From contig CALCJD010000145.1 in NCBI GenBank assembly GCA_937960895.1, positions 1-50,992 of the forward strand: a stretch of DNA of 50,992 bases, written 5' to 3'. This DNA is from an uncultured Spartobacteria bacterium (GTDB taxonomy: Bacteria > Verrucomicrobiota > Verrucomicrobiia > Chthoniobacterales > Terrimicrobiaceae). A program made the translations under genes and the position numbers. Below are positions 17,813 to 40,611 of this stretch, one piece after another. The notes under the pieces are model-generated. The model was not told the DNA's origin. It did not search any database and saw only the letters and a program-made list of their open reading frames with translations. Numbering within the stretch: position 1 is the stretch's first letter; each line of letters begins with the position of its first letter.

Positions 17813-17839
17813 ATTGCTTCGCACGCGAGATCACCCCGG

Positions 17840-18508
17840 ATGATGAAAAGACCTTCCCTCTTCCTCCTGTCCCTTCTGGCCGCGCTGGCGCTTTCGCCGG
17901 CGGGGCATGGGGCCGGTGACGTCCTTTTTTCGGAGGATTTTTCCGGGGATCTCTCGAAATGGACTCCGCTGAAGGCGAGTGCGCCGTGGGAAATCTCGGA
18001 CGGGGCGGTGGTTTCGTCGGGAACGGTGATCTTTGACGTGCTGGAAACACGCAGTTTTGTCCCGATCACCGACGGGTCCTTTGACTTCCGGGTGGAAGTG
18101 AGGTTCGAGTCGGCCATGAAAAGCCCCAACAACCGCTTTTTCCTGCGCATGCGCGACAGTGAGTCGGGGAACCAAGGGTACGAGGTCGTGGTGGCGCAGG
18201 GAACCTCCGGCAACACGCTGATGACGGAGATCAAGGCGGAGAAATCCCTGAGCCAGACGCTGGAGTCGGAGCCGTTTGTTTTTCCGACGGATGACTTCGT
18301 GCCGATTCGCTGGGTGCGGGACAAGAAGGGTCGGCAGCAACTCTTCGTCGATGGGGTGCTTTACCTCCAGGCGGAAGGCGGCGCGCCCAGCAGCTTCAAC
18401 AAACTCGTCCTCGGCACGCGTTCCTACGTGGAGGCGGCGGGGGAAACGTCCCCGATGAGACATTATTTTCGCAACGTGGAACTGAAGGAAGGGCCCGACT
18501 CTCTTTGA
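17840..18508 (+). CDS. Secreted DUF1080-like protein; paralog of 17051..17812 without PEP-CTERM
   Basis: Signal peptide (LFLLSLLAALALSPAGHGA). Same opening motif (VLFSEDFSGDLSKWTPLKASAPWEISDGAV) and shared NRF(Y/F)LRMRDS...GYE(L/V)...AQGT block. The C-terminal RHYFRNVELKEG matches the DUF1080 terminal FRNI motif. Confidence 0.75.
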   Translation: MMKRPSLFLLSLLAALALSPAGHGAGDVLFSEDFSGDLSKWTPLKASAPWEISDGAVVSSGTVIFDVLETRSFVPITDGSFDFRVEVRFESAMKSPNNRFFLRMRDSESGNQGYEVVVAQGTSGNTLMTEIKAEKSLSQTLESEPFVFPTDDFVPIRWVRDKKGRQQLFVDGVLYLQAEGGAPSSFNKLVLGTRSYVEAAGETSPMRHYFRNVELKEGPDSL

Positions 18509-18540
18509 TCCCAATCCGCCGCCATGGTGGCTCCTGAAGA

Positions 18541-19242
18541 ATGATCCCCCCTCACTGCCGTTTTCGCACGCGATGCGCCGCAGCCTTCACCTTGGTTGAG
18601 ACCCTGGCCGTTGTTGCGGTCATTGCCGTCCTGGCGGCTCTGCTGGTGCCCACTGCGACAAAGCAAATCCGACGTGCGCAGGAGGCGGGTTGCCTGAACA
18701 ACCTGCGGCAAATCGGGGTGGCGACGGAGATGTTTCTGCAGGATCACGAGGGCTACATGCCTGACGTGAACTGGTGGGCGCAGGAGCTGCTGCCGTACGG
18801 GAACGAAACGGGCCGGGAGAAAAACATCTTCTGGTGTCCGGCGGCGACAAGGAAGGACGCCCCTTTGAATGCCAGTGGCAATCTGGGACGTTACGAGGAT
18901 GGCGCGATCATTCCCATCGCGTATGGGATCAACGGCAACTATCCGAGCAACAACGGACAGATCCTGGTGGGAAACCGCGGCACACGTGTGCCCGAACGTC
19001 GCAAGCTGACGGTGCCCGATCCACAGAAGACGGTGATTTTCCTCGATGGTGCGGGCGGTTTTGCAAACATCTTCTTCGACACCCCCGCTCGCATCTCGCG
19101 ACGCCACGCGCGGTCCGAGGATGCCAACCGCATGCAGGTGAATGCCCTTTTTGTCGACGGTCATGTTGCACCGCTCGACATGGAATACAGCACCGCGCCG
19201 CGCTCCCCCTGGCGGGCCACGTTTGACACCGTCTGGAAGTAG
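18541..19242 (+). CDS. Prepilin-type N-terminal cleavage/methylation domain protein (type IV pilin-like N-terminus; DUF1559-like C-terminus)
   Basis: N-terminal AAFTLVETLAVVAVIAVLAALLVP (class III signal / pilin-like helix). C-terminal ...NALFVDGHVAPLD, similar to the LF-DG-[SH]-V end of Planctomycetes/Verrucomicrobia DUF1559 proteins. Confidence 0.7.
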   Translation: MIPPHCRFRTRCAAAFTLVETLAVVAVIAVLAALLVPTATKQIRRAQEAGCLNNLRQIGVATEMFLQDHEGYMPDVNWWAQELLPYGNETGREKNIFWCPAATRKDAPLNASGNLGRYEDGAIIPIAYGINGNYPSNNGQILVGNRGTRVPERRKLTVPDPQKTVIFLDGAGGFANIFFDTPARISRRHARSEDANRMQVNALFVDGHVAPLDMEYSTAPRSPWRATFDTVWK

Positions 19243-19243
19243 T

Positions 19244-19260
19244 CCGGACGTCCGTTTTTT
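19244..19260 (+). terminator. 10-bp perfect palindrome CGGACGTCCG followed by TTTTTTG; weak candidate terminator or protein-binding site between the pilin-like gene and the GH gene
   Basis: Sequence agtagtCCGGACGTCCGttttttgaatcaggcATG. The stem is short (4-5 bp usable), so a factor-independent terminator is only marginal. Confidence 0.2.
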
Positions 19261-19269
19261 GAATCAGGC

Positions 19270-22462: not shown

Positions 22463-22550
22463 TGGTGCCGGCGGCGGGATTCGAACCCGCACTCTGGTTT
22501 CCCAAAAACGGATTTTAAGTCCGTTGCGTCTGCCATTTCGCCACGCCGGC
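22463..22550 (-). tRNA. tRNA-Leu (anticodon TAA), type II with a long variable arm and encoded CCA
   Basis: The reverse complement of 22463..22550 is GCCGGCGTGGCGAAATGGCAGACGCAACGGACTTAAAATCCGTTTTTGGGAAACCAGAGTGCGGGTTCGAATCCCGCCGCCGGCACCA. It has a 7-bp acceptor stem (GCCGGCG/CGCCGGC), a D-arm, an anticodon stem ACGGA/TCCGT with loop CTTAAAA (anticodon TAA), a long variable arm, a T-loop GGTTCGAATCC and a 3' CCA. Confidence 0.85.
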
Positions 22551-25249: not shown

Positions 25250-26641
25250 ATGATTGCACGCCAACAGGAAATTCGTCTTCAAGTCAACCAATTGATTGAC
25301 GCTGTCCTGTTGGGCGGGGTGTTCTGGCTGTGCCACTGGGTGCGGCATTCGGGCCTGCTGGTTCTCGACGCGCTGAATGAAATTCCCGCGTTTGATCATT
25401 TTTTGTGGATGCTGGCCGTCATCATGCCTTTCGGCCCCTTCCTGCTGGAATTGCAGGGCTATTACCAGCACCCGCTGGAAAAGACGGTCTGGAAATCCCT
25501 GCACCAGATCGCCCGGGCGGGCTTGTGGCTGGGCCTCATCATCGGAGGGGCGGTGATTTTCCTCCGCCTCACGGTGCCGAGCCGTTCCGTGCTGATCCTT
25601 TTCTGCATTGCGGCCCCCGTCACCCTGATCCTCAAGGAGCGGATTTATGCGTGGCTGAGGCTGATGAAGCTGAAACAGGGGGAGTCCGGCGAGCGCATCA
25701 TTCTGGCGGGCGAGCAGGAACGCATGCGGGAAATCGTGCGGACGCTCAGCCTGGCCCAGCGGCTCGAGGTCCGGATTGTGGAGCGGATCGATCTTGAGGT
25801 CTGCGAGGTGAGTGAACTGGTCAACGCCATCCACCGTCACAGCGTCGGGCGGGTGATCCTGGCATTCAGCCGGCTGGAAATGGACAAGGTGCAGCGGGCC
25901 ATCGAGGCCTGCGAGGTCGAAGGAGTCGAGGCCTGGTTGAGCGCGGATTTCATCCGGACCTCCGTCGCCCGCCCCACATACGAGAACCTGGGAGGGCGTC
26001 CCATGCTCGTTTTCCGGGCCACGCCCGACCTTTCCTGGGCCCTGCTCGTCAAGGGCCTCATCGACCGCGTCGGGGCCTTCGTCGGCTTGGTGGTGCTGTC
26101 GCCGCTCTTTGTCATTCTTGCCATCCTCGTGCGGCTGAGTTCGCCCGGCCCGGCCTTCTTCAGTCAGAGACGGGCGGGAATCCACGGACGCCCCTTCACC
26201 ATGTGGAAATTCCGGTCGATGTTCGTGGACGCCGAAAAACGCCATGCGGAATTGCTGTCGCGCAACGAAATGAGCGGACCGGTCTTCAAGATCGAAAACG
26301 ATCCCCGGGTCACCCCGATCGGCCGGTTCCTGCGCAAGACCAGCCTGGACGAACTGCCGCAGCTGTTGAACGTGTTGCAGGGCGACATGAGCCTGGTGGG
26401 CCCCCGGCCGCTGCCCCTCTACGAAGTGGAGAGTTTTTCGTCCGCCGCCCACCGCCGCCGCCTGAGCATGAAACCCGGACTGACCTGTCTCTGGCAGGTG
26501 CGGGGACGCAACAATGTCCGGAATTTCGACGACTGGGTGAAGATGGATCTCGAATACATCGACAACTGGTCGTTGCGACTGGATTTCAAGATCCTCCTGA
26601 TGACAATTCCGGCCGTCCTGAAGGGATACGGCGCCAAATAG
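25250..26641 (+). CDS. Undecaprenyl-phosphate hexose-1-phosphate transferase (bacterial sugar transferase, WbaP/EpsB-like priming glycosyltransferase)
   Basis: 463 aa with 4-5 N-terminal TM helices and a central CoA-binding-like domain. The C-terminal bacterial sugar transferase domain carries PRP..E and D....Y motifs (LVGPRPLPLYEV...DLEYIDNWSLRLDFKILLMTI). Confidence 0.85.
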   Translation: MIARQQEIRLQVNQLIDAVLLGGVFWLCHWVRHSGLLVLDALNEIPAFDHFLWMLAVIMPFGPFLLELQGYYQHPLEKTVWKSLHQIARAGLWLGLIIGGAVIFLRLTVPSRSVLILFCIAAPVTLILKERIYAWLRLMKLKQGESGERIILAGEQERMREIVRTLSLAQRLEVRIVERIDLEVCEVSELVNAIHRHSVGRVILAFSRLEMDKVQRAIEACEVEGVEAWLSADFIRTSVARPTYENLGGRPMLVFRATPDLSWALLVKGLIDRVGAFVGLVVLSPLFVILAILVRLSSPGPAFFSQRRAGIHGRPFTMWKFRSMFVDAEKRHAELLSRNEMSGPVFKIENDPRVTPIGRFLRKTSLDELPQLLNVLQGDMSLVGPRPLPLYEVESFSSAAHRRRLSMKPGLTCLWQVRGRNNVRNFDDWVKMDLEYIDNWSLRLDFKILLMTIPAVLKGYGAK

Positions 26642-26715
26642 TCGGGCGGGGCGTGGAGAAAATCCACTTTTCTTACTAGCCAAAAACGATTTGCGTCGGT
26701 TATCAAAACGACCCG

Positions 26716-27669
26716 ATGTCTCAACCTTCCAGACCCATCACCAGTGTTGTCACCGGCGGAGCAGGCTTTCTTGGCTCCCATTTGACGGATCGCCTTCTCG
26801 CTGAAGGACATCGGGTGATTGCGATTGACAACCTGATCACCGGCAACGTTGCGAATATCGAGCACCTGGCAGGCAACAAGAACTACAAGTTCATCCATCA
26901 CGACGTCACCAACTACATTTTCCTGCCGGGTGAGGTGCATTACGTCTGGCATTTTGCCAGTCCGGCCAGTCCGATCGACTACCTGAACCATCCCATTCCA
27001 ACCCTCAAGGTGGGTTCCCTGGGCACCCACAACAGCCTGGGTCTGGCGAAGGCCAAGGGGGCTTCGTTCCTGCTGGCCTCGACCTCGGAATGTTACGGCG
27101 ATCCGCTCGTCCATCCCCAGACCGAGGATTACTGGGGAAACGTCAATCCGATCGGACCGCGGGGGGTGTATGACGAAGCCAAACGCTTCGCCGAGGCCCT
27201 CACGATGGCCTACCACCGGTACCATCAGGTCGACACCAAGATTGTCCGCATTTTCAACACCTATGGTCCGCGCATGCGCCTCAACGACGGACGTGTCGTG
27301 CCGGCCTTCATTGGCCAGGCCCTGTCCGGTCAGGCGCTGACCATCTTCGGCGACGGCTCCCAGACCCGCAGCTTTTGTTACGTCTCGGATCTCATCGATG
27401 GCATTTACCGTCTCATGATGAGCGACTACCATGAGCCGGTGAACATCGGAAATCCCCGGGAAATGACCATTCGTCAGTTCGCCGACGAGATCATCCGCAT
27501 CATGGGAGCCTCCGCGAACATCGAACACCGGCCCCTGCCGGTGGACGACCCGAAGGTCCGGCAGCCCGACATCACCCGCGCGCGGGAGATTCTCGGCTGG
27601 GAGCCCAAGGTGGACTTCGAGGAGGGCATCCGCAAGACCATCGAGTACTTCAAAAACCACGTTCGGTAG
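26716..27669 (+). CDS. UDP-glucuronate decarboxylase (UDP-xylose synthase, UXS-type extended SDR)
   Basis: [26 protein letters not shown] and YDEAKRFAE (the YxxxK motif), plus strong overall resemblance to UXS1/ArnA-decarboxylase-type enzymes. 317 aa. Confidence 0.85.
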
Positions 27670-27721
27670 CAGGCTTTTCTTTGTTTACTCCCTTAAGTAA
27701 TTCGCATATTCTTCACATTCC

Positions 27722-28351
27722 ATGTCTCCCTTGAAACTCCTCCCGGCGGCCTCTCTTGCGATCCTCATGGCCGCGTTTTCGACCAGCTTCGCCCAGCAGC
27801 CGAACACCGAGTACAAGATTGCCAAGATCGACCCCAGTTTTGTCGAGTCCCCGAATTACACGGGACCGCGGTACGACAAGCGGGGAACGAAGCCCGGATC
27901 CTGGCTTGAGGTGGAGGTGACCTTTGAATGGCAGCCGCGTCAGAAGCAGCCGAAATACACGGAGGAACTGACCGCCAATTTCTACATCCTGCTGAACAAT
28001 CAGAGCCAGCAGTTCCCGAAGGGAGCCCTGCTGACCGGTTCGGTGACCATGATGAGCGTCCCGCAGGGACGGGACCTGCACACGGTCGTGTACATCAGCC
28101 CGCGCACCCTGGAGCGCATGTTTGACGGCAAGGTGCCGTCGAACGCCTCGCAGGCGGTGACGGACATCGGAGTGACTTTGAGCAAACAGGGGCAGGTGGT
28201 GGCCTCCACCAGCTGGAAGAGCAAGAGTGGAGAGTGGTGGCCGCTTTATCAGCAGACACCGGGATACGTCCTCAACAAGAACGAGACCCCGTTTGCTCCT
28301 CTCGCCTGGGATTATTACGAAGCCATCAAGCCGAAAGGCCCCGGCTTTTAA
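27722..28351 (+). CDS. Secreted hypothetical protein; first gene of the pili-like cluster (position corresponds to Amuc_1102 in the Akkermansia locus)
   Basis: Signal peptide (LLPAASLAILMAAFSTSFAQQ). 209 aa, lower GC than its neighbours, no known domain recognised. Its stop lies 39 bp before the PilM-like gene. Confidence 0.65.
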   Translation: MSPLKLLPAASLAILMAAFSTSFAQQPNTEYKIAKIDPSFVESPNYTGPRYDKRGTKPGSWLEVEVTFEWQPRQKQPKYTEELTANFYILLNNQSQQFPKGALLTGSVTMMSVPQGRDLHTVVYISPRTLERMFDGKVPSNASQAVTDIGVTLSKQGQVVASTSWKSKSGEWWPLYQQTPGYVLNKNETPFAPLAWDYYEAIKPKGPGF

Positions 28352-28390
28352 TACCCGGATCCACTCGGAAACTTTCCTTACAGCTAGCCC

Positions 28391-30169
28391 ATGGCCGCGC
28401 CCACACGCATTGTTTCGCTCAATCTTGGCATGCAAACCGTCACCCTGGCGGAATTCCATGCCACGCCGGATGGCGCGATTACGCTGAATGCCTGCAAGCA
28501 GGAAGAGCTGATTGTCGACCCTGCGGCGGACGTCACCCGTCCGGCCCAGATTGAGTCTGCAATCGACAACCTGCGCAAGGCATTGAAACTGCCGGCAAAA
28601 TTCCCGGTGAACTACTGCCTGCCTTCGCAGTCGGTTTTCGCCCGCTTTGTCAAACTGCCCGGAGCCACGCCGGAGGATGTCACGGAGATCATCGCCTTCG
28701 AAGCCCAGCAGAACGTGCCGTTTCCCATCGATGAGGTGGTCTGGGACTACCAGATTATGGGTGAGTCCAAGGAGAACAACTGGGACGTGGCGCTTGTCGC
28801 GATCAAGGCTGATCAGCTTGGGGAAACCAACGACGCGGTCAATCGCGGAGGTTTCCGCAGCGGCGTCATCGACGTGGCGCCCATGGCGCTCTACAACGCC
28901 TTCCGCTACAATTACAGCGAACTCACCGGATCCTCGCTCCTGATCGACATCGGAGCCCGCACGACCAACCTCGTGTTTGTGGAGGGCAAGAGGGTCTTCA
29001 GCCGCAGCATTCCGGTGGGCGGCGCCACCATCAGCGCCGCCATCGGCAAGGAATTCAAGCAGGACATCACCGTCGGCGAGAAGCTCAAGCTGGAGAAGGG
29101 ATTTGTCGGACTGGGCGGCGCCTATGCCGAACCGGACGATCCGACGGAAACCCGCATTTCAAAGCTGGTGCGCAACACCATGACCCGTCTCCATGCGGAA
29201 ATTGCGCGCTCCATCAGTTTTTACCGTCAGAACCAGGGAGGCAGCGCCCCCGTGCGCGCGTTCCTCTGCGGCGGAACTTCGGGACTGCCCTACATGCTGG
29301 AGTTTTTCAGCGAAAAACTCCAGATCCCGATCGAGCATTTCAATCCCCTGCGCAATGTCACCGTGGCCAACGAGGAGACGGCCGCCTTTGTCAGCACCAG
29401 GGCGCATGCGTTGGGCGAGGTGGTCGGCACGGCCCTGCGCGGACTCAAGAATTGCCCGATGGAGATCAATCTCCGTCCCGCCAGTGTCGTCCGGGAGCAG
29501 GATCTGGCCCGGCGCAAACCCTTTCTGGTGCTGGCCGGAATCTGTCTGGTGCTCGCCCCGGCCACCTGGTGGTTCTATTTCCATCAGGCCAAGACCCTCA
29601 CCGAGCAAAACCTGGATTCGGTCAACCAGGATGTCGCCAAACTCGAGGCGGTTGCCAAGCAGTTCGACGCCCTGAACGCCGAGGCCAAGAAACTGGTCGA
29701 GTCGGCGGCGCCCCTCCTGCTGGCCTCGGCCGAACGCGGGGTCTGGGCGCAGATCATTGACGACCTCGGTCAGCGCCTGCCGAGCCGCTACATCTGGGTG
29801 ACGGAGGTCGTTCCGCTTGTCGATGGAAAGACCCCCTATCAGGTGGGTGAATCCTCGACAACGTCGCCGGTCAGCGCCACGCCGTCCGGAGGGGCGGCCC
29901 GACCGGGTGCCACCCCGCCTCCCGCGCCCAAGATCGATGCGTTGCGCATCAGCGGCCTCTATCTGGAGCGACTGCCCAACGACACCCGTTCGCAACCCCA
30001 GCTCGTGGTGGATGATTTTGTGAACAACCTGCAGAAATCCTCGGTTTTCAAGATCGAGGAAAAGGACAAATCCCGAATCATCATCGAACGGCAGACGCCC
30101 GACGGCCAGAAATGGGCCTATAACTACACCCTCGTGCTTCCGCTTCGTAATCCCATCGCTCTGCCATGA
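28391..30169 (+). CDS. Type IV pilus assembly PilM-like actin-fold ATPase fused to a PilN-like TM/coiled-coil segment
   Basis: N-terminal 360 aa form a PilM/FtsA-like actin fold (IVSLNLGMQTVTLAEF..., LLIDIGARTTNLVFVEGK..., FLCGGTSGLPYMLEFF). They are followed by a TM helix (PFLVLAGICLVLAPATWWFYF) and a coiled-coil plus beta region, as in PilN. 592 aa. Confidence 0.8.
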   Translation: MAAPTRIVSLNLGMQTVTLAEFHATPDGAITLNACKQEELIVDPAADVTRPAQIESAIDNLRKALKLPAKFPVNYCLPSQSVFARFVKLPGATPEDVTEIIAFEAQQNVPFPIDEVVWDYQIMGESKENNWDVALVAIKADQLGETNDAVNRGGFRSGVIDVAPMALYNAFRYNYSELTGSSLLIDIGARTTNLVFVEGKRVFSRSIPVGGATISAAIGKEFKQDITVGEKLKLEKGFVGLGGAYAEPDDPTETRISKLVRNTMTRLHAEIARSISFYRQNQGGSAPVRAFLCGGTSGLPYMLEFFSEKLQIPIEHFNPLRNVTVANEETAAFVSTRAHALGEVVGTALRGLKNCPMEINLRPASVVREQDLARRKPFLVLAGICLVLAPATWWFYFHQAKTLTEQNLDSVNQDVAKLEAVAKQFDALNAEAKKLVESAAPLLLASAERGVWAQIIDDLGQRLPSRYIWVTEVVPLVDGKTPYQVGESSTTSPVSATPSGGAARPGATPPPAPKIDALRISGLYLERLPNDTRSQPQLVVDDFVNNLQKSSVFKIEEKDKSRIIIERQTPDGQKWAYNYTLVLPLRNPIALP

Positions 30170-31056
30170 ACTGGTTTCGTGAAAATCCCTTTGTCTCCGG
30201 CCTGGCGATTTTTGTCGTCGTGGCATCCGGGGCGTTGATCTTCCTGACGACCCGGACCATGTCGGAGTACTCCGAGATCTCCGATCAATACACCCAGGCC
30301 GTGCAGAAGCTCCATGGCCTGCAGAATCGGTCGCCGTTCCCGAATGCCGAGAACCTGGCCAAATCCAAGGCGCTGGAGGCCGAATACAAGGCCGAACTCA
30401 CCGCCCTGCAGGAACAGCTCGCCAAGCTGGAACCGCCGGTCAACCCGGACATCAAACCGCAACAGTTCCAGGACGACCTGCGGGCTGCGGTCAATGACGT
30501 GATGAAAAAGGCGGCCGAAAAGCAGGTCACCCTGCCGCGGGACTTTTATCTGGGCTTCAGCCAGTACGTCAACAGCCTGCCCAATGACAAGGCCGCGCCC
30601 CTGCTCGCCCGCCAGCTGACCGTCATCAAGGAGATCGTCGACAATCTCATCGACGTGGGAGTTCAGTCCATTGACGGCCTGACGCGCCGTCCTCTGCCGG
30701 AGGAACAGCCCTCGGCCGCCCAGGCCCAGCGCAAACCGGCCATCGTGGAACGCTTCCCGTTTGACATCGCCTTCACCACCGACCAGAGCAAGTTCCGGAT
30801 CGTCTTCAACGGGATCCAGAAATCAAACCGCTTTTTGATCATTCGGGCGCTGAACCTCAGCAACACCAGCCAGGACGGACCTCCGGTTGTCCAGGACAAT
30901 GCGCAGACCTCGGTCACGGCGACCGCCAGCCTGGCGGGAACGGGGGTCGAGGGTTCCAAGGAGCTGAACGTGATCCTCGGCCGGGAGTTGGTCAAGGTCT
31001 CCCTCCGCCTGGAAATGATCGCCTTCAACTTTCCGAAGCCGGAGGCCAAGAATTAA
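30166..31056 (+). CDS. Amuc_1100-like / PilO-like membrane-anchored pili-associated protein
   Basis: N-terminus MNWF...TM helix, then a coiled coil. The blocks FPFDIAFTTDQSKFRIVFNGIQKSNRFLIIRALNLSN and the C-terminal VKVSLRLEMIAFNFPKPEAKN resemble, from memory, Amuc_1100 of Akkermansia muciniphila (MSNW...TM; ...LEIAFQGDRESVLKAMNAI...; ...VQVSLNLVHFNQPK...). The ATG overlaps the stop of the PilMN gene (ATGA). Confidence 0.6.
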   Translation: MNWFRENPFVSGLAIFVVVASGALIFLTTRTMSEYSEISDQYTQAVQKLHGLQNRSPFPNAENLAKSKALEAEYKAELTALQEQLAKLEPPVNPDIKPQQFQDDLRAAVNDVMKKAAEKQVTLPRDFYLGFSQYVNSLPNDKAAPLLARQLTVIKEIVDNLIDVGVQSIDGLTRRPLPEEQPSAAQAQRKPAIVERFPFDIAFTTDQSKFRIVFNGIQKSNRFLIIRALNLSNTSQDGPPVVQDNAQTSVTATASLAGTGVEGSKELNVILGRELVKVSLRLEMIAFNFPKPEAKN

Positions 31057-31062
31057 TCTGTC

Positions 31063-31992
31063 ATGGATTGGGTGAAACAAAATTACGAACGCGCCCTGCT
31101 GGCGCTGGCAGCCGTCGCCTTGCTGGCCTGCAGCGTGCTGGTGATTCTCAAGGTGCAGGCTTTTCCCGCCCTGTTTGAAGGCAGGAACAGTTCGAAAAAG
31201 CCGGATCACGAGATCAAGCCCTACCCGGTGGAAGAGCTGAAGGTGGCCGCCGCACAGGTCGCCCGGCCGGCCCAGTTTTCGAGTTCCGAAGGGTCGTTGT
31301 TTGTTTCCCTGCCCTACGTGCTGAAGGACGGGATCATCATCAACCCGATGGAGAGCCCGGAGCCCCTGCATCCGCCGATCAAGAACACCTGGTTGATCAC
31401 CCACAATCTGCCCTGGTGGGAGAGCGACGTGAAGGATCAGGATCCCGACGAGGATGGCTTCACCAACCTTGAGGAGTTTCAAAACGGAACGAACCCGAAG
31501 GACAAAACCTCCGTGCCGCCCTACTGGAAGAAACTTCAGCTGGAGAAGTTCATCTCCATTCCGTTCCGTCTGAAGTTCAACGGCGTCTCGGATGAAGGCA
31601 AGATCTTCCAGATCAATCCCCAGGGAGGCCGGTCGCAATTCCGTGGCGTCGGCGAGATGATCGAGGGCACCCCCTACAAGATCGTCAGCTACAAGCAGAA
31701 ATTCGCCACCAAGAACGAGATGGAGGTCGATGTGTCCGAGTTGACCATCGAAAACACCGAAACCGGCCGCATGATCGTGCTGGTTTACCGGCAGGAAGCC
31801 AATGATCCGACCTCCAAAGCGCTATTCCGTTATCTCTATGATAACTCGACGTTTGAGGTGAAACTCGACGATGAATTCGGCCTGGTTCCGGTGCCGGAGC
31901 ACAAGTATAAACTCATTGACATCAACGATGAGAAGGCCGTAATACAGGACCAGGAGACGAAGGAAACCCATGAGATTCCTCGTCTTCGCTAA
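31063..31992 (+). CDS. Membrane-anchored hypothetical protein of the pili-like cluster (PilP-like position)
   Basis: N-terminal signal-anchor (ALLALAAVALLACSVLVIL). 309 aa, Lys/Glu-rich. It lies between the Amuc_1100-like gene and the secretin gene. Confidence 0.55.
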   Translation: MDWVKQNYERALLALAAVALLACSVLVILKVQAFPALFEGRNSSKKPDHEIKPYPVEELKVAAAQVARPAQFSSSEGSLFVSLPYVLKDGIIINPMESPEPLHPPIKNTWLITHNLPWWESDVKDQDPDEDGFTNLEEFQNGTNPKDKTSVPPYWKKLQLEKFISIPFRLKFNGVSDEGKIFQINPQGGRSQFRGVGEMIEGTPYKIVSYKQKFATKNEMEVDVSELTIENTETGRMIVLVYRQEANDPTSKALFRYLYDNSTFEVKLDDEFGLVPVPEHKYKLIDINDEKAVIQDQETKETHEIPRLR

Positions 31993-32113
31993 AGCCGCTG
32001 CCAAGCCTGACCATGCGCGCCTTAACCAACGCGTTTGCAAGTGGATCGGAGTCCCCAGCTCCGAGCCGGGCGTTTCCGATTCCATAGTGTTCCCAGACAA
32101 AGTTGCCTTAATC

Positions 32114-34591
32114 ATGAAGTTCCAAGTTTTCACCGTATCCGCCCTGTTGGCACTCAGCGCATCAGCTTCCCATGCGCAGCAGGCGGGAAGCCAAGCCGCG
32201 GCGGAACGGGAAATCCGTCGCCTGGAGCACAACAGCCGGCATGCGCAGGATGCGATCAGGAAGGGCAACGAGGCCCTGAAGAATCAGGACTATGAAACGG
32301 CCTATGCCTGGTTCAAAAGCGCGGTGGATGTCCTTCCGAGCGGTGGCTCCGCCACGGCTTCCCTGCGCGAGGAGGCGCTCGACGGTTTCAGTCGCGCCTG
32401 TGTGAAGCTGGCCCAGCAGCGCATTTCCGAAGGCCGCTTCGAGGATGCCTCGACCACGCTCGATGTCGTTCTCGAGGAGCGGTACAATCCCACCTACGGG
32501 CCGGCGCTCACCCTGCGCAAGAAGCTCAAGGAGCCGAACACCTTCAACAAGACGCTCACTCCGGGATTCATCGCCAATGTGGAGGAGGTCAAGCAGCTCC
32601 TCATTGAGGCCGACGGATTTTATCAGACCGGCCGGTTCGATCTCGCGTTCAAGCGGTACGAACAGGTTCTCAACGTCGACCCCTACAACATCGCCGCCCG
32701 CCGCGGCATGGAGAAGGTCAATCAGGCCCGGGCCAAATACTCCGACGTCGCCTACAGCGAAGCCCGCGGAAAAATGCTGACGGATGTCGAGGCGGCTTGG
32801 GCGCTTCCCGTCCGTCAGTTCGACATCGGAACCACCACCATCATTGAGCAGCCGCAGATCGATCAGCGCGGCACCTCGCTCATCAATCGCAAGCTCGACG
32901 AAATCATCATTCCCCGCATCGACTTCCAGGATGTGACGATTCGCGAAGCCCTCGATTTCATCAAGCAGCGGGCCGCGGCGCTGGACACGACGGAAACCGA
33001 TCCCTCCAGGAGGGGCGTGAACATCGTGCTGAACATTCCGGAGTCGGCTCCCGAGGCCTCCGCGCGCATCACTCTCGGTCTGACGGACATCCCGCTCCGC
33101 GCCGCCATCAACTACGTGGCGAACGCCGCAAACCTCAAGCTGAAGGTGGAACCCTATGCGGTGTCCGTGGTTCAGCAGTCCACTCCCACCGATGTGCTGA
33201 TCACCAAGGAATACAAGGTGCCGCCGGGATTCATCACGGCCCTTCCCAACCAGTCCGGGGCGGCTCCCGCTCCGGGGGCGGGCAACCTCGCCCCGGGTTC
33301 CCAGTCTGCGGTGGCGGCCCGTTCGGGGGCCCGCGAGTTTCTGGAGAACTCCGGTGTGACCTTTCCTCCGGGGGCGACGGCCTATTTCATCGCCAGCACC
33401 AGCAAGCTGATCGTCAAGAACACCCAGTCCAATCTCGATCTGGTCGACACTTTGGTGGAGAACTCCCTCGCCGTGCCGCCCAGCCAGGTGGAAATCGAGT
33501 CGAAGTTCCTCGAAGTCACGCAAAACAACCTCAAGGAGCTTGGGTTTGACTGGCTGCTTGGACAGTTTGCCATGCCCTTCGGATCGGGCATTTACGGTGG
33601 CGGAGGAACCCCGGGCCTGAATCAGACCATCAACTCCAACGCCTTCCCGATCTTGAATCCGAACGGCCTGCCGGTCGGCGCGACCTCGGACACCTCCGGT
33701 TCGATCACCGGGGGCATCCGATCGGGTTCGGGCAGCCGGTCCTATTCGACGGCAATCAGTGTCAACGCCATCGACGCGCTGCTCTTCGGCACCCCGGTGG
33801 GCCCTGCCCCGGCGATGCTGGCGGTGGCCGGAGTCTTCACGAACCCGCAGTTCCAGGTTGTCATCCGTGCCCTGAATCAACAGAAGGGCGTCGACTTGGT
33901 CAGCGCGCCCAAGGTGACCACCAAGAGCGGCGTGAGGGCCACGATTCAGATTGTCAGGGAATTCCGCTATCCCACGGAGTTCGACCTGCCGCAGGTCACC
34001 CAGTCCGCCGGCTCCATCTACACGCCGGCCACTCCGACCACCCCCACCGGATTCGAAACGAAGCCGGTCGGTATCACTCTCGAGGTTGAGCCCACGGTGG
34101 GTCCGGACGGATACACCATCGATCTGATCCTCTCCCCGCGGGTGGTCGAGTTCGACGGCTTCATCAACTACGGCAACCCCATCTACACGGTGGGTACCGC
34201 CTCTGGATTCGGTGTCTCCAGTCAGCTGTTGATGACCGAAAACACCATCAACCAGCCGGTCTTCTCCACCCGTGAGGTGACGACGGAAGTGACGGTTTAC
34301 GACGGTCAGACGGTCGTTCTGGGCGGACTGATGCGCGAAGACATCCAGAAGGTCGAGGACAAGGTGCCGATCCTGGGCGACATCCCGCTGGCTGGACGCC
34401 TTTTCCGCAGCACGGCCGACCAGCACATCAAACGGAATCTGATCATGTTTGTGACCGCCAGCCTGCTGGATCCCGCCGGTCAGCCGTTGATCAAGGTGGA
34501 TGAGGAAAGCGAGATCCTCCCCGTTCCCGATGCCATGCAGATCGAGAACGAAATCATTCCCGGCGATCCCCTTTCCGCCCTCCCTCAGTAA
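32114..34591 (+). CDS. Secretin (PilQ/GspD family) with an N-terminal TPR-like periplasmic region; paralog 1
   Basis: Signal peptide MKFQVFTVSALLALSASASHAQQ; ATG at 32114 verified. The track ORF start at 31970 is an upstream extension. Secretin-domain motifs: VEIESKFLEVTQNNLKELGFDWL, PILGDIPLAGRLFRS and NLIMFVTASLL. 825 aa. Confidence 0.85.
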   Translation: MKFQVFTVSALLALSASASHAQQAGSQAAAEREIRRLEHNSRHAQDAIRKGNEALKNQDYETAYAWFKSAVDVLPSGGSATASLREEALDGFSRACVKLAQQRISEGRFEDASTTLDVVLEERYNPTYGPALTLRKKLKEPNTFNKTLTPGFIANVEEVKQLLIEADGFYQTGRFDLAFKRYEQVLNVDPYNIAARRGMEKVNQARAKYSDVAYSEARGKMLTDVEAAWALPVRQFDIGTTTIIEQPQIDQRGTSLINRKLDEIIIPRIDFQDVTIREALDFIKQRAAALDTTETDPSRRGVNIVLNIPESAPEASARITLGLTDIPLRAAINYVANAANLKLKVEPYAVSVVQQSTPTDVLITKEYKVPPGFITALPNQSGAAPAPGAGNLAPGSQSAVAARSGAREFLENSGVTFPPGATAYFIASTSKLIVKNTQSNLDLVDTLVENSLAVPPSQVEIESKFLEVTQNNLKELGFDWLLGQFAMPFGSGIYGGGGTPGLNQTINSNAFPILNPNGLPVGATSDTSGSITGGIRSGSGSRSYSTAISVNAIDALLFGTPVGPAPAMLAVAGVFTNPQFQVVIRALNQQKGVDLVSAPKVTTKSGVRATIQIVREFRYPTEFDLPQVTQSAGSIYTPATPTTPTGFETKPVGITLEVEPTVGPDGYTIDLILSPRVVEFDGFINYGNPIYTVGTASGFGVSSQLLMTENTINQPVFSTREVTTEVTVYDGQTVVLGGLMREDIQKVEDKVPILGDIPLAGRLFRSTADQHIKRNLIMFVTASLLDPAGQPLIKVDEESEILPVPDAMQIENEIIPGDPLSALPQ

Positions 34592-34637
34592 GTAACCAGC
34601 AATCCGGATAATGAGATTTTTGCCCTTTAACGAGTAT

Positions 34638-37226
34638 ATGAGACAAACGGCCTTCATCGTTCCGGCGCTGGTGATAGTTTCCTCCCTGGGATCTCTCAGC
34701 GCTCAGAACATCGCCTCCATCGCCGACCGGGAAATCGTTCGCCGTCAGGAGGACTTGGTTGTCGGCGAAAAGCTGATCGCCCGTGGCGACAAAGCGATGG
34801 CCGAAAAGGAATACGAACAGGCGTATGTCAACTACCTGGATGCCTTGGATCGCATCCCCGCCGGGGGCGCCAGCAAATCTCTGCGGGCCAGCGCGGTCGA
34901 CAAGTTCAGCCGCGCCGCCATCGCGTATGCGGAACACCTCATTGCCACCGGCCGCTACAGCGACGCGGAAAAGGTCGCCAAGACGGTTCTCCTGCCGGAA
35001 TACAATCCGACCTACAAGCCGGCGGTGAAGCTTCTCTCCAACCTGGAGCAGCCCGACTATTACAACAAGACGGTCACCCCGCGCTCGGCGGCCGACACCG
35101 AGGAGGTCACCCGTCTGCTTTACGAAGCTCAAGGGTATTATGAGAGCGGCCGGTATGACCTGGCGATGAAACGTTACGAACAGGTCCTCAACATCGACCG
35201 TTACAACATCGCGGCCCGCAAGGGGATGGACCAGGTCAACCTGCAGAAGTCCAAATATTACGGCAGCGCCTACAACGAAACCCGCAGCCGCATGTTGTGG
35301 CAGGTGGACAACTCCTGGGACCGTCCTGTCCGTCGTTTTCAGGGAGGCCGTTCCACGGCGACCGGTCCGCTCAATCGCACGGGTGTGCGCAACACCGAGG
35401 CCATCATGGCCAAGCTGAACCGGATCATCATTCCCCGCATCGATCTGCAGGAGGCCACCGTTCGTGATGCGGTGGAGTTCCTCAAGCAACGCAGCCGGGA
35501 TCTCGACACCTCGGCGGAATCCCCAGGTGAACGTCGCGGCGTCAACATCGTACTCAAGCTGGACAGCGTTCCCGCCGCGGCCCCGGCCGATCCCAATGCC
35601 CCCGAGGATCCCAATGCGCCGCCTCCGCAGGTGAGCGGCAATGAGAACACCCGGATTACGCTGAGCTTGAACAATGTGCCTCTCATCGAAGCGCTGAGGT
35701 ATCTGACCGAGCTCTCCGGCCTGAAGTACAAGATCGACCCGTATGCGGTGTCCATCGTCCCGCTGTCCGAGAACACCACGGACCTGGTGACCAAGGAGTA
35801 TCGGGTTCCGCCCGGCTTCATTCCCACGGAATCGGGCGATGGGGACGCCCTGCCGACCCCGGGGGCGATCAGCGCCGAGCCCAACGCCCGTCGGATCGGG
35901 ACCAGGGTGGACGCCAAGACCTATCTGGCCCAGAGCGGCGTGCCGTTCCCGACCGGTGCGTTTGCCCAGTATGTTCCTGCGGGCAGCAAGCTGATTGTTC
36001 GGAACACCCCGGATGCGATCGATCTGGTGGATTACCTCGTGGATGCCGCCGTCGGTGTTCAGCCGACCCAGGTGGAGATCGAGTCCAAGTTTCTTGAGAT
36101 CACCCAGAACAACCTGAAGGAGCTGGGCTTCGACTGGCTGCTGGGGCCGTTCTCCATCGGCGGGGGAGTTTATGGAGCCGGTGGCACCGTGGGTTATGAC
36201 GGAACCGGGGTTTCTCCCGCAAGCTATCCGTTCGTGAGCGGAGGCGTTCCGGTGGGCGCCGCCGGCGCCGGCGGGGCCGGCTATCCGGTGACTTCCGGAC
36301 TGCGTTCGGGTGTGGGAACCAGCACCCAGTCGGCCATTTCCGCCAACAGCATCGATTCGCTGATCAGCGGCATCGTGCCCGGAACGAACTTTGCCTCGCC
36401 GTCCATCTTCGGTCTGTCCGGCATCTTCACCAATCCGCAATTCCAGGTCGTCATTCGGGCCCTGGATCAGAAAAAAGGTGTGGATCTGATGTCCGCGCCG
36501 AAAGTCACCACCAAGAGCGGTCACAAGGCGATTGTCCGTGTGGTCCGTGAGTTCCCGTATCCGGTCGAATTCAATCCGCCGGAGCCTCCTCCGCCGCAGA
36601 CCGGCATCACAACCAGCATCGGAGGTGGCCAGGTTCCGGGCACGATCATCACCACCGGTGTTGTCACCCCGACCACTCCGACCGCGTTTGAAACCCGCAA
36701 TCTCGGTGTGACCCTCGAGGTGGAGCCCGTGGTGGGACCGGATGGTTATACCATCGATCTGAATCTGTCTCCCGAAGTGGTGGAGTTTGACGGCTTCGTC
36801 AACTACGGATCGCCGATTCTTGGTGCCCGGTTCAATCTGGCGACCCTGACCATCACCCAGCCGCTCATTACCGACAACACCATCAACCAGCCGATCTTCT
36901 CGACCCGCAAGGTGACCACCAGCGTCAGCATTTGGGACGGGCAGACGGTGGCACTGGGCGGACTCATCCGTGAGGACGTTCAGAAGGTTCAGGACAAGGT
37001 GCCGATCCTCGGTGACGTGCCGCTCGCGGGCCGCCTCTTCCGCTCGAACGTCGACCAGAAGATCAAGCGCAACCTGATCATCTTCGTCACCGCCCGCCTT
37101 CTGGATGCGGAGGGACGTCCGGTGCGTCAGGAAGACGAGACGGAGGAAATGGTGGAGCCCCTGGGGCTGCCTCAGGACATTCCCGCTCCGCCCTTCGAGC
37201 TCGGAAAAGGCATTCCGCTCAAGTAA
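34638..37226 (+). CDS. Secretin (PilQ/GspD family); paralog 2, tandem duplicate of 32114..34591
   Basis: Signal peptide MRQTAFIVPALVIVSSLGSLSAQ (alternative start 34611). Near-identical motifs: VEIESKFLEITQNNLKELGFDWL, PILGDVPLAGRLFRS and NLIIFVTARLL. The N-terminal region is colinear with paralog 1 (YNPTY, RYEQVLN(V/I)D.YNIAAR(R/K)GM). It carries extra low-complexity inserts (APADPNAPEDPNAPPP; GAAGAGGAGYP). Confidence 0.85.
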   Translation: MRQTAFIVPALVIVSSLGSLSAQNIASIADREIVRRQEDLVVGEKLIARGDKAMAEKEYEQAYVNYLDALDRIPAGGASKSLRASAVDKFSRAAIAYAEHLIATGRYSDAEKVAKTVLLPEYNPTYKPAVKLLSNLEQPDYYNKTVTPRSAADTEEVTRLLYEAQGYYESGRYDLAMKRYEQVLNIDRYNIAARKGMDQVNLQKSKYYGSAYNETRSRMLWQVDNSWDRPVRRFQGGRSTATGPLNRTGVRNTEAIMAKLNRIIIPRIDLQEATVRDAVEFLKQRSRDLDTSAESPGERRGVNIVLKLDSVPAAAPADPNAPEDPNAPPPQVSGNENTRITLSLNNVPLIEALRYLTELSGLKYKIDPYAVSIVPLSENTTDLVTKEYRVPPGFIPTESGDGDALPTPGAISAEPNARRIGTRVDAKTYLAQSGVPFPTGAFAQYVPAGSKLIVRNTPDAIDLVDYLVDAAVGVQPTQVEIESKFLEITQNNLKELGFDWLLGPFSIGGGVYGAGGTVGYDGTGVSPASYPFVSGGVPVGAAGAGGAGYPVTSGLRSGVGTSTQSAISANSIDSLISGIVPGTNFASPSIFGLSGIFTNPQFQVVIRALDQKKGVDLMSAPKVTTKSGHKAIVRVVREFPYPVEFNPPEPPPPQTGITTSIGGGQVPGTIITTGVVTPTTPTAFETRNLGVTLEVEPVVGPDGYTIDLNLSPEVVEFDGFVNYGSPILGARFNLATLTITQPLITDNTINQPIFSTRKVTTSVSIWDGQTVALGGLIREDVQKVQDKVPILGDVPLAGRLFRSNVDQKIKRNLIIFVTARLLDAEGRPVRQEDETEEMVEPLGLPQDIPAPPFELGKGIPLK

Positions 37227-37299
37227 CGGCTCGCCAAGGTCCCCCGTTCGGAATGACGGACGGGGGTGCCGGGAGCGCGGGCGCAAGGAGACCGTCGAG

Positions 37300-37902
37300 A
37301 TGCCCATTCTTGGAATCACCGGCGGAATCGCCTCGGGAAAGACCACCTTCCGCAAGCTGCTTCTCGAGCGGATCGAGGCGGATTTTTTCGACAGCGACGC
37401 CTGCGCCCGGGAGTTGCTCGACGAGGACGAGTCCATTCGCGAGCAGGTTCTCGCAAAAGTGCATCCCGAGGCCTATGGCGCGGGGGGACGGCCGAATCGG
37501 ACGCTGCTGCGCGAGTTGATTTATCAGGACGCCGCCAAAAAACGCACGCTGGAGGGCATTCTTCATCCGGTGATTCGCGAGCGCTGGTCCCGTCAGGCCC
37601 GCGAAGCCGCGGCGGCCAACCGCCTTTTTGTCGTCGATATTCCCCTGCTTTTCGAAACCAAGGCCGAGTCGCTGTTCGATAGCATTGTCACCGTGGCCTG
37701 TTCCGTCGAAACGCAGCTGGACCGTCTCGGGAGAAACCGCAATCTGCCCCGCGAAATCTCGGAGAAAATCATTGCATCCCAGATGCCGATGGGGGTCAAA
37801 ATCGCCCGCTCTCACCACGTCGTCTGGAACGAAGGATCCCTGGAAGCCCTGACGACCCAAACCGATTTGCTAGCCCGCCATTTGCATGACCGATACGGTT
37901 GA
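37300..37902 (+). CDS. coaE: Dephospho-CoA kinase
   Basis: MPILGITGGIASGKTT (P-loop); ATG at 37300 verified. Track ORF 37105.. is 5'-over-extended. Confidence 0.85.
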   Translation: MPILGITGGIASGKTTFRKLLLERIEADFFDSDACARELLDEDESIREQVLAKVHPEAYGAGGRPNRTLLRELIYQDAAKKRTLEGILHPVIRERWSRQAREAAAANRLFVVDIPLLFETKAESLFDSIVTVACSVETQLDRLGRNRNLPREISEKIIASQMPMGVKIARSHHVVWNEGSLEALTTQTDLLARHLHDRYG

Positions 37903-39184
37903 AAACTCTCCGCCGCCCGCGTTGGAGCCCCTGTGCCTGAATTCGCTGCAGACTCTTGGTCTGCCGAAGCTCCTCGAACGGGCCGCCGACCTGGGCATCC
38001 GCATCCGGCCGGACGCGTCCCGGCACCATCTGGTGCTCGACCAGGCCCGCTACCAGCTCAGTCAGGGCGGGGAGGTGCACGCCACCGGATTGCTCGAAAT
38101 GTCCGGCGAAAACGGCGTCCTGCGCTGGCCGGCGTTCAATCTGCGCCCCGGTCCGGAGGATGTGCTGGTGCCGGCGGCGTTGATGCGCCCCCTGGAATTG
38201 CGGCCGGGTTTCTTTTTGCACTGCAGGTTGCGCCTGCCCCAGGACCGGGAACGCGGCCTTGTCGTGGAGTCCATCCTCGACATCGAGGGCATTCCGGTGG
38301 GGGAGTGGCGGCCGCCGGTTGAGTTCGACAAGCTCACCCCGCTCTTTCCCAATCGCCGGGTGTTTCTCGACTCCGCCCAGCATTCCTCGCTGACGGCCCG
38401 GGCGGTGGATCTGGTCGCGCCGCTCGGCATGGGGCAGCGGGGCCTGATCGTCGCGCCGCCGCGGGCCGGAAAGACGCTCATGCTCAAGGCGATTGCCAAG
38501 GCGATCCGCTCGAACCATCCCGAGATTGCGCTCATTTTGCTGCTGGTGGACGAACGTCCCGAGGAGGTCACCGACCTGCGGCGCGAACTGGATTGCGAAA
38601 TTTACAGCTCCACCTTTGACGAACCCGTCGCCCGCCACGTGCAGGTGTGCGAGGCGGTGGCGGAGCGCGCCAAGCGCCTGGTCGAGCTGCGCAAGGATGT
38701 CATCATTCTGGTCGACTCGCTGACCCGCATGGCGCGGGGCTACAACAACCTCCAGCCCGGCAAGGGGCGGACGATGAGCGGCGGCGTCGACTCCAAGGCG
38801 CTTGCCAAGCCGCGCAAGTTTTTCGGTTCGGCCCGCAATGTGGAGGAGGGGGGCAGCCTCACCATTCTTGCCACGGCGCTGGTGGAAACCCAGAGCCGCA
38901 TGGACGACCTGATTTTTGAGGAGTTCAAGGGCACGGGCAACATGGAGGTGCACCTCGACCGCTCCATTGCCGAACAGCGCATTTTTCCCGCCATTCACAT
39001 CGTCAAATCCGGCACACGCCGTGAGGAACTGCTTTATCATCCGGACGAATACGAGCGCGTGGTGCAGATTCGCAGGCAGCTGTCCGAACTTCCCGCCGCC
39101 GAGGCCATGGAGGTTCTTGCCGTCAATCTCCAGCACACCCGCTCGAATGCCGAGCTGCTCCTCACCGGGCTGAGGGGAGTCTGA
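37886..39184 (+). CDS. rho: Transcription termination factor Rho
   Basis: Walker [16 protein letters not shown], the [12 protein letters not shown] motif, and Q- and R-loop regions. 432 aa. Confidence 0.9.
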
Positions 39185-40611
39185 TGAAGGGGCGCGGTTC
39201 CGCCCTCCTGATCGTCCTTTTTCTTTTGGTCGCGCTGGCGGTTTTTTGGAATCGCGCAGCCGTTCAGGGCCGTGCGGTCAACACCAACATGGACTCGACC
39301 GATCAGAGCGCCTACATGAAGCAGGCCATCGATCAGCGGCTCACCGACTTCGCCTACGTCAATCCCCGGAACCGCATGCCCCTTTACCCGGGGCTGCTGG
39401 CGCTCTTCATGGACAAGGGGGAATTGACCGCCCTGCGGGAGACCCATCCGGAAAACCGCGAATTCTTCCGCCGCGCCTGCGCGGGATTTTTTGAGACCGG
39501 AAAAAAAATCAACACGGTCCTGGCCGTCGGGCTGCTCGTTTTTCTGGCGGTGGTGTTTTTGCGGAAGTTTCCCCCTCACCATGCCCTCAACATCTGGACG
39601 CTGGCGGCCTTCGGCGTCATCGTCTTCAAGGCGCCCTGGGTCCAGGCGGAGCTGCTTTATTATTTTCTGACCTTTTCGGCCTTCCTGGTGTGCTGGCGAT
39701 TGTTTGGCCGTCCGGATTTCCTTCTGGCGATCCTGGGCGGTGCGCTGCTGGGTCTCGGCCATCTCACCAAGGCTTCCGTGCTGCCGGGAGTGCTGGTGTT
39801 TGTGGTATTTTATCCTCTCGACGCGCTCTGGCGGGGTTTTCGGAGAACGGGGAGGGGCGACACCGCGAACCCTGTGGGAGGAGCCCCGGAATGCCCGCGG
39901 CCGTGGGGGGGAGTGCTCCGCCGGGTGGCCGTCGCGGGTCTTGTCGCCGCCGCCTATCTGGCGGTCATCGGCCCGTACATCCTGCAGAGCAAGCGGATGT
40001 TCGGCAGCTATTTTTACAATGTGAATTCCACGTTTTACATGTGGTGCGACTCGTGGAAGGAGGCGAAGGCCAGCACGGGCGGCGAGGACCGCAAGGGGTT
40101 TCCCGACCACATTCCCCGGGATCAGTTGCCGAGCCTTTCGAAGTATCTGAAAACCCACACCGCCGGGCAGATTGTCATGCGGCCCATCAAGGGAATTTCC
40201 GTGGTCTTCAATTCCATGATGCGCGCCTACGGCTACCTTGGCCCGTGCCTCGCGTATCTGGGGTTTGCCGTTGTCGTGGCCGCATGGAAATGGCGGCTTG
40301 TCCGGCGTTTGATCTCCCGGCGTCCGGTGCCGCTGCTGGCCCTTCTCGCCTACTTTTGCGGCTATTACCTGCTGTTCGCCTGGTACAGTCCCATCATCAA
40401 CGGGAACCGCTTCGTTCTCGGACTCTTTCTGCCGTTTCTCTTCTCGGTGTCCGTGGTCATCGTCCGGCTGGCTCCGCGGGTGCGTTGGGCCTGGCGCGGC
40501 CGGCGCCTTCCGCTGCTCACCGCGTTTAATGTCATGATGTCAGCCTGGATTGCCTGGGAAGTTGCGTGGATTTGCTTCGATCGGATAGCGCGGGTGTACG
40601 GGGGCGGATAA
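39184..40611 (+). CDS. Polytopic membrane protein, GT-C fold glycosyltransferase-like (ArnT/PMT family-like)
   Basis: At least 11 TM helices. An acidic loop motif follows the first TM (NMDSTDQSAYMKQA, D-x-D/E...Y). 475 aa. The stop of rho overlaps its ATG (gtCTGATGa). Confidence 0.55.
   Translation: MKGRGSALLIVLFLLVALAVFWNRAAVQGRAVNTNMDSTDQSAYMKQAIDQRLTDFAYVNPRNRMPLYPGLLALFMDKGELTALRETHPENREFFRRACAGFFETGKKINTVLAVGLLVFLAVVFLRKFPPHHALNIWTLAAFGVIVFKAPWVQAELLYYFLTFSAFLVCWRLFGRPDFLLAILGGALLGLGHLTKASVLPGVLVFVVFYPLDALWRGFRRTGRGDTANPVGGAPECPRPWGGVLRRVAVAGLVAAAYLAVIGPYILQSKRMFGSYFYNVNSTFYMWCDSWKEAKASTGGEDRKGFPDHIPRDQLPSLSKYLKTHTAGQIVMRPIKGISVVFNSMMRAYGYLGPCLAYLGFAVVVAAWKWRLVRRLISRRPVPLLALLAYFCGYYLLFAWYSPIINGNRFVLGLFLPFLFSVSVVIVRLAPRVRWAWRGRRLPLLTAFNVMMSAWIAWEVAWICFDRIARVYGGG

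Follow-up and report, generated by a model that had tools for sequence, protein, structure and literature searches.

A Chthoniobacterales counterpart of the Akkermansia Amuc_1102-1098 (MUL2) locus with tandem secretin genes

We analyzed a window of 50,992 nucleotides (51 kb; contig CALCJD010000145.1 of assembly GCA_937960895.1) from an uncultured Spartobacteria bacterium of the Chthoniobacterales, and describe here a gene cluster on its plus strand that corresponds to the Amuc_1102-1098 locus of Akkermansia muciniphila. The core of the cluster, at positions 27722-37226, is probably an operon that encodes the alignment subcomplex, the part spanning the cell envelope, of a machine of the type IV pilus (T4P)/type II secretion system (T2SS) class, in its Verrucomicrobia form. 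Apart from a duplicated secretin gene, the cluster is the ordinary version, in Chthoniobacterales (soil and freshwater Verrucomicrobia), of the already catalogued Amuc_1102-1098 system, which is called MUL2 (Davey 2023, as cited in PMC13174399).

Conservation of an Amuc_1102-1098-type locus

Eight open reading frames (ORFs) occupy the plus strand between 25250 and 37226, all at the coordinates named by a first-pass annotation of this DNA. Their GC content at third codon positions (GC3) is 0.76 to 0.83, which is of the coding type. Public metagenomes contain identical contigs, on which the genes had been called independently with the same outcome, so that coordinates and strands stand as annotated. 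The gene-for-gene likeness to Amuc_1102-1098 that was proposed at the same time is borne out by curated hidden Markov models (HMMs) for the five families, by matches to PDB structures (6KNY/6LAD and 7DSZ), and by fold searches. All five families, Amuc_1102, 1101, 1100, 1099, and 1098, are represented above the NCBI curated equivalog cut-offs, the last of them twice, and family matches range from E 1e-32 to 1e-263, far past chance. The genes are collinear on a single strand in the order 1102-1101-1100-1099-1098, flanked by aroD, coaE, and rho. Their junctions are tight, with an overlap at 30166-30169, then a 6-nucleotide (nt) gap and later a 19-nt gap, as would be the case in an operon.

The same order recurs among relatives. 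A genome scan with a 12-sequence Amuc_1100 alignment as the query, the loci reached being those of Chthoniobacterales only, gave 79 species-level loci with Amuc_1100 homologues (Terrimicrobiaceae, Chthoniobacteraceae, and "Spartobacteria") at ≤55% identity, and the order 1102-1101-1100-1099-secretin is kept in every one of these with enough sequence. At such identities, the source is a Chthoniobacterales species outside the scanned representatives. The Amuc_1100 family as a whole comprises 1385 clusters at 50% identity (E ≤ 1e-3), and a protein identical to the window homologue occurs in several public metagenomes. Recurrent flanks in the relatives are rho (and coaE) downstream and aroD upstream, and aroD, coaE, and rho also flank the Akkermansiaceae MUL2 loci according to the legend to Fig. 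2B of PMC13174399. The aroD...coaE-rho block is thus of great age and has been stable on the chromosome, being conserved even in Akkermansiaceae.

Set beside the Akkermansia MUL2 locus itself (Ottman 2017, PMC5332112), the likeness covers the five families, their order and strand, the aroD, coaE, and rho flanks, and a TPR-bearing secretin N terminus, the Amuc_1098-family model NF042912 being covered end to end. The differences are that one secretin is described for Akkermansia, whereas two tandem paralogues are present here; that a glycosylphosphotransferase gene and a UDP-xylose synthase (UXS) gene are inserted here between aroD and the first gene of the cluster; and that sequence identity is low, PDB matches reaching only E 1e-8 to 1e-12. 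In addition, Akkermansia is a gut mucin specialist, whereas the host here is an environmental Chthoniobacterales species with 62% GC.

The system must be regarded as known and catalogued, since NCBIfam and Pfam (PF28028, PF28178) models already exist for these families and MUL2 has been treated both by Ottman 2017 and in a 2026 ISME J paper (PMC13174399). The latter surveyed MUL2 synteny across Verrucomicrobiota, Chthoniobacterales included, and NCBI already names the Terrimicrobiaceae homologues "Amuc_1100 family pilus-like protein." The novelty implied by the first-pass annotation was thus overstated, and the synteny survey that it suggested, in which the Chthoniobacterales loci keep their order, already has a published Verrucomicrobiota-wide counterpart. 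The cluster shows that the locus behind the much-studied immunomodulatory Amuc_1100 encodes an envelope machine that is deeply conserved in free-living Verrucomicrobia and housekeeping-like in character. The known picture is left fundamentally unchanged. Residual interest lies in the secretin duplication, in the assignment of a PilP/GspC-like fold to Amuc_1099, and in the support lent to the view that Amuc_1100-family proteins are PilO-type components of the inner membrane.

Two variations on the locus were seen among relatives. One metagenome-assembled genome (MAG) of the Chthoniobacterales, CAWAIY01, carries at L058 an extra partial Amuc_1102-1101-1100 set (22-3091) before the full cluster (3878-10461), and the same cluster is found on a second contig of this MAG (L060). 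At L006, L008, L009, L011, L013, and L086, a second Rho-like gene lies beyond trpD, at a distance of roughly 3-5 kb on the upstream side of the cluster; it shares about 49% identity with the rho gene downstream, so that two rho paralogues bracket the locus, the window being without the upstream one.

Subunit folds and the type II secretion alternative

Fold assignments now reach every subunit of the machine: PilM plus PilN/GspL-like, PilO-like, PilP/GspC-HR, and secretin. The Amuc_1101 (MUL2B)-family protein (28391..30169, +) is a PilM-PilN fusion that scores 684 against a cut-off of 650 on the Amuc_1101_fam model NF045709, aligned over model positions 1-606 of 608. It consists of a cytoplasmic PilM actin-like domain (residues 1-352), a transmembrane (TM) helix (about residues 377-397), a coiled coil, and a C-terminal periplasmic domain, which in fold searches is of the PilN/GspL-type ferredoxin-like kind. 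PilM_2 (PF11104) scores 95.4 versus a cut-off of 27 in this protein, and TIGR01175 pilM reaches 132.8 bits, just under its cut-off of 133. The start of the Amuc_1100-family gene (30166..31056, +) overlaps the stop codon of the fusion gene. Its product scores 249.5 versus 180 on NF038287, belongs to PF28028, and matches PDB 6KNY/6LAD/6LAF at E 5-7e-9; the comparison of 30166..31056 with Amuc_1100 that had been proposed as a check thus yields a direct match to Amuc_1100 structures (E 7e-9). Its topology is PilO-like: a TM helix at the N terminus (9-27) leads into a coiled coil, and an alpha-beta-beta x2 domain follows. Amuc_1100 has been likened to PilO/PilN before (bioRxiv 10.64898/2025.12.30.696933; PMC13119276), and the subunit folds found here support a PilO-type inner-membrane assembly protein over a pilus subunit.

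The Amuc_1099-family protein (31063..31992, +; NF042425, 233.5 versus 50) starts with a membrane anchor that may include a lipobox (LLAC23) and carries a TSP3-like acidic DxDxDG motif at 124-147; its C-terminal part is a predicted PilP/GspC "HR" beta-domain. This is the kind of domain that docks onto the N0 domain of secretins. The first gene of the cluster encodes an Amuc_1102 (MUL2A)-family secreted protein (27722..28351, +; NF042424, 112.9 versus a cut-off of 55; PDB 7DSZ, E 2e-12), and the public gene identical to it carries PF28178. The protein has an ordinary Sec signal peptide (...SFAQQ) and lacks a prepilin (class III) signal. For Amuc_1102 itself, an Ig-like fold was described by Xiang et al. 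2021, as cited in PMC13275887 and PMC13174399.

From these folds we infer the physical contacts of a working machine. The PilM-like actin-fold domain would lie in the cytoplasm, joined via one TM helix to the PilN-like periplasmic domain in a GspL-like layout, and this periplasmic domain would have as its inner-membrane partner the Amuc_1100 homologue, which is PilO-like. Through its PilP/GspC-type HR domain, the Amuc_1099 homologue would link the ring in the inner membrane to the N-terminal domains of the secretin, with the secretin acting as a gated channel in the outer membrane. The Ig-like Amuc_1102 homologue, exported by Sec, may be an accessory or filament-associated subunit. Any filament would be formed from subunits encoded elsewhere, as would be the motor ATPase(s), the platform protein, and the prepilin peptidase, an arrangement like that of classical pilMNOPQ operons. 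By analogy with Akkermansia, the machine probably serves surface attachment and/or complex-glycan acquisition. Glycan (mucin) acquisition, attachment, or pilus-like structures are known in the literature only from Akkermansia experiments, and the genetics behind the attachment and glycan role is related second-hand in PMC13174399 and PMC12418764.

The type IVa pilMNOPQ operons of Pseudomonas, Myxococcus, Thermus, and Neisseria resemble the cluster in PilM, in bitopic PilN/PilO-type proteins with ferredoxin-like periplasmic domains, in a putative PilP-type HR domain, in the secretin, and in gene order. Operons of this type normally lack genes for ATPases, platform, and pilins, which are encoded elsewhere and are likewise absent from the cluster here. 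The first-pass annotation was right that no ATPase or classical pilin gene lies inside the cluster; as this is the normal state of pilMNOPQ-type operons, the absence is not odd. In contrast to the type IVa operons, PilM and PilN are fused here, the secretin is duplicated and has TPR repeats in place of AMIN domains, and an extra first gene encodes the Ig-like secreted protein of the Amuc_1102 family.

As an alternative, the cluster could be the outer part of a T2SS, with equivalents of GspL-M-C-D, that secretes glycoside hydrolases or other exoproteins. GspL shares the layout of the fusion protein (cytoplasmic actin-like domain, TM helix, periplasmic ferredoxin-like domain), and in structural/HMM comparisons the Amuc_1099 homologue and the secretins find their best matches in the GspC HR domain and in GspD. 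For both secretins, the GspD HMM has a slight advantage over that of PilQ (E 4e-40 versus 3e-34), the best PDB match of the secretin is GspD, and a pseudopilin-like gene adjoins a large GH42-like gene in the window. However, the cytoplasmic domain matches PilM_2 and TIGR01175 pilM, with no T2SS-L model among the matches; the GspD equivalog score is about 138 against a cut-off of 351 (TIGR02517, 137.9 and 125.5 for the two secretins); and genes for GspE, F, and G-K are adjacent neither in the window nor in the relatives. We consider a T2SS unlikely, and given the homology between T2SS and T4P, to separate them may in part be a matter of terms.

Several points weigh against reading the cluster as the alignment part of a T4P/T2SS-class machine. 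In contrast to the type IVa operons, no window protein matches the PilN (PF05137), PilO (PF04350), or PilP families of Pfam at E up to 0.01, so that these assignments rest on fold and topology, together with gene order. When 35 members of the Amuc_1100 family were compared with Pfam at a threshold of E 5, PilO did not appear and a weak T2SSM_b did so in 2 only, which leaves membership of the family in PilO unsupported at the sequence level. When the profile of the Amuc_1101 C terminus was set against the Amuc_1100 profile in hhalign, the probability was 63% (E 7e-5), mostly over the TM helix and coiled coil. The cell-surface location reported for Akkermansia Amuc_1100 (PMC5332112) fits poorly with an inner-membrane PilO role. 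Both secretins fall under the equivalog cut-offs of PilQ (TIGR02515, 118.6 and 109.7 versus 284) and GspD alike, so that a pilus function is indistinguishable from one in secretion or uptake. The DNA examined for neighbors and partner genes was the 51-kb window, and within it neither a class III-signal filament subunit nor a PilB, PilT, or PilC gene is tied to the cluster. Genes for PilB, PilT, PilC, PilD, and a major pilin are lacking throughout the window, one prepilin-like gene (18541-19242) apart, and also within 10 kb of the cluster in three relatives. Finally, we found in the literature no demonstration, in any organism, of filaments made by a MUL2-type system. The lack of PilB/PilT/PilC in the window bears as well on a further concern of the first-pass annotation, that the cluster might adjoin a standard T4P/T2SS gene set, which it does not.

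Tandem secretins

The conserved tandem secretin duplication is the sole feature of the cluster that goes beyond the known MUL2 system, and it is apparently undescribed; a limited literature search found no relevant description of tandem or heteromeric secretins. Secretin 1 (32114..34591, +) scores 860 versus 750 on NF042912 and contains PF00263 (E 9e-36). Its ORF opens at 31970, but M49 (nt 32114) is the first residue of the signal peptide, and the start previously assigned there is most likely correct. In the PDB it matches GspD and PilQ at E 2e-20 to 1e-12. Secretin 2 (34611..37226, +), distinguished by Pro-rich insertions, scores 874 on the same model, so that the presence of a second secretin of the Amuc_1098 family, already remarked upon in the first reading of the cluster, is secure. 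The two are 48% identical over 850 amino acids (BLASTP). Each has a signal peptide, a TPR-rich N-terminal region, and a secretin domain, with N-domains also listed for secretin 1. A Pfam/HMM scan found an AMIN domain in neither, TPR repeats being present there instead.

Copy number was counted at the 60 Chthoniobacterales species loci with sufficient downstream sequence: tandem secretins are present in 40 and a single secretin in 20. In a neighbor-joining tree of 101 sequences and 799 columns, first copies form one clade and second copies its sister clade, with mirrored branching, and the secretins of single-copy loci are placed outside both. The window proteins follow this division, secretin 1 falling in the first-copy clade and secretin 2 in the second-copy clade. 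Sister clades with mirrored topology indicate one ancient duplication that predates these species, after which both copies were kept. For the machine as proposed above, this would mean a secretin gene duplicated once, long ago, in the lineage, with both products still in service.

The second secretin might instead be a decaying or redundant duplicate without a distinct role, as the paralogues are adjacent and identical in domain layout, and the second copy is split or shortened in some assemblies (L008, L022, L053). These few split copies come from metagenome assemblies, however, and may be assembly errors, whereas full-length pairs exist in about 40 species, both window secretins exceed the curated cut-off, and the mirrored sister clades place the duplication before the species, with both copies retained. 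A decaying duplicate is accordingly very improbable, and retention of both secretins across a large clade argues for distinct roles.

What those roles are can be put forward only tentatively. The two secretins may split the work on a single PilM/N-O-P platform, either as a mixed, hetero-oligomeric ring or as two specialized channels, a possibility to which we give a low probability. In the two-channel version, one secretin may, for example, extrude a filament while the other passes large glycans, which would fit the uptake role proposed for Akkermansia MUL2. If true, split-role or mixed-ring secretins would be an arrangement undescribed for T4P or T2SS machines. The conserved duplication in any case offers a natural system for studying secretin specialization.

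Upstream sugar genes and other features of the window

Two sugar genes directly precede the cluster. The first encodes a polyprenyl-phosphate glycosyl-1-phosphate transferase (large PHPT, WbaP/WcaJ-like; 25250..26641, +) that scores 393.5 versus 295.6 on TIGR03025 and contains the PF02397 Bac_transf domain (E 5e-69). As it falls under both the WbaP and the WcaJ equivalog cut-offs, its earlier description as a WbaP-like priming transferase holds in the sense of a polyprenyl glycosylphosphotransferase, with a likeness to WbaP in family only and not at the equivalog level. The second gene (26716..27669, +) encodes a predicted UDP-glucuronate decarboxylase/UDP-xylose synthase, the UXS introduced above. 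Residues 11-315 match human UXS1 (2B69/4GLL) at E 8e-112, whereas the next SDR class follows at E 3e-41, in agreement with the original call. UXS is 78-88% identical across Chthoniobacterales.

This context raises the alternative that the cluster is coupled to the sugar genes, exporting or anchoring a xylose-containing glycan or having its own subunits glycosylated, the transferase priming and UXS feeding UDP-xylose. Among 65 Chthoniobacterales loci, UXS is the co-directional immediate neighbor, directly 5' of the Amuc_1102 gene, in 38 and lies 2-6 kb off in 7 more, while the transferase is directly 5' in 8 further loci. The position of UXS is held even where the genes farther upstream are unrelated (amino acid permease, cupin, K+ channel). 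The gaps are short, at 74 nt between transferase and UXS and 52 nt between UXS and the Amuc_1102 gene. In the former lies a hairpin (26653..26667, +) of a 5-pair stem followed by TTTTCTT, a weak terminator-like site and weak evidence, as the scan as a whole was unenriched (22 sites versus 15.7 ± 4.8 expected); in the latter, the terminator scan found no such site.

The cluster is nonetheless intact in all three states, with transferase and UXS (L084), with the transferase only (L085), and with neither gene (L086); the transferase is also missing at the corresponding position in the close relatives L008 and L011, where, as in L086, both genes are absent next to an intact cluster. In the Akkermansiaceae loci, as described in PMC13174399, aroD directly flanks the cluster and no sugar genes intervene. 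Adjacency to the unrelated housekeeping genes coaE, rho, and aroD is equally conserved, so that adjacency is weak evidence of shared function. Compared with a Wzx/Wzy- or Wza/Wzc-type export locus, only a priming transferase and UXS are present here: family scans of the window and the relatives found no Wzx, Wzy, Wzc, or Wza, and flippase, polymerase, further glycosyltransferase, and O-oligosaccharyltransferase genes are lacking there as well.

A further argument against coupling comes from a conserved promoter-like element, TTTTCTTTGTTTACTCC (27675..27712, +), which was recognized by cross-species comparison and is separated by 9 nt from the start codon (ATG) of the Amuc_1102-like gene. It comprises TTTACT (27684-27689), a 17-nt spacer, and the TA-rich hexamer TATTCT (27707-27712). 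The motif TTTTNNTTGTTTACTCC within it, at 27675-27691, or 31-47 nt 5' of the ATG, is unique in the window, where 0 matches are expected by chance. Of 71 loci, 21 have it at -35 to -48 relative to the start codon, where the background rate is 0.0045 per 150 nt. Its TTTACT core does not vary among 13 species, whichever of UXS, transferase, or aroD stands upstream. A sigma-70 consensus scan gave nothing in front of the operon, and the motif emerged only from the comparison of species. Judged by this conservation, the motif would be the operon's own promoter, giving a nearly leaderless mRNA. Standing before the first gene independently of the upstream neighbor, it appears to mark the start of the unit.

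With a conserved motif of this kind and variable sugar genes, we rate functional coupling low, as a distinctly improbable reading. The transferase and UXS upstream, like coaE and rho downstream, are probably neighbors of the machine and not components of it. The sugar-gene context pointed out by the first-pass annotation is thus real in position, with both genes directly preceding the cluster, and the link looks positional, not functional.

The remaining observations concern other parts of the window. Downstream, a coaE ORF (37105-37902, +) overlaps the end of secretin 2; within this long ORF, residue 68 is the first of the CoaE domain, and public gene calls start at 37300 (200 amino acids). 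The gene after rho (39184-40611, +), which overlaps the rho stop codon with its start, encodes a 475-residue multipass membrane protein. Near relatives have it too (L084; L007 at 49% identity), and it has no Pfam or NCBIfam match. We considered it as a GT-C glycosyltransferase tied to the sugar genes and rejected this candidate, as there is no family match and no similarity to the PMT_2 glycosyltransferase that occupies this position in L085.

Upstream, the pseudopilin-like gene mentioned above encodes a prepilin-type protein (18541-19242, +), 6 kb upstream of the cluster, with an AFTLVETL motif and weak ComGC/GspG/PilA matches. It sits away from pilus machinery, in an unrelated sugar-utilization run (15949-22089) whose order is LacI regulator (15949), PEP-CTERM protein (17051), secreted protein (17840), the prepilin-like protein, and a 939-residue GH42-like protein (19270). 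Over window positions 1-6000, especially at 3139-5286 (-), GC skew is strongly positive (0.13-0.19) and AT skew negative; the 715-residue minus-strand ORF at 3139-5286 has a coding-type GC3 of 0.84 and no Pfam match. A search for RNA genes across the window found one alone, a tRNA-Leu (anticodon TAA) at 22463-22550 (-).

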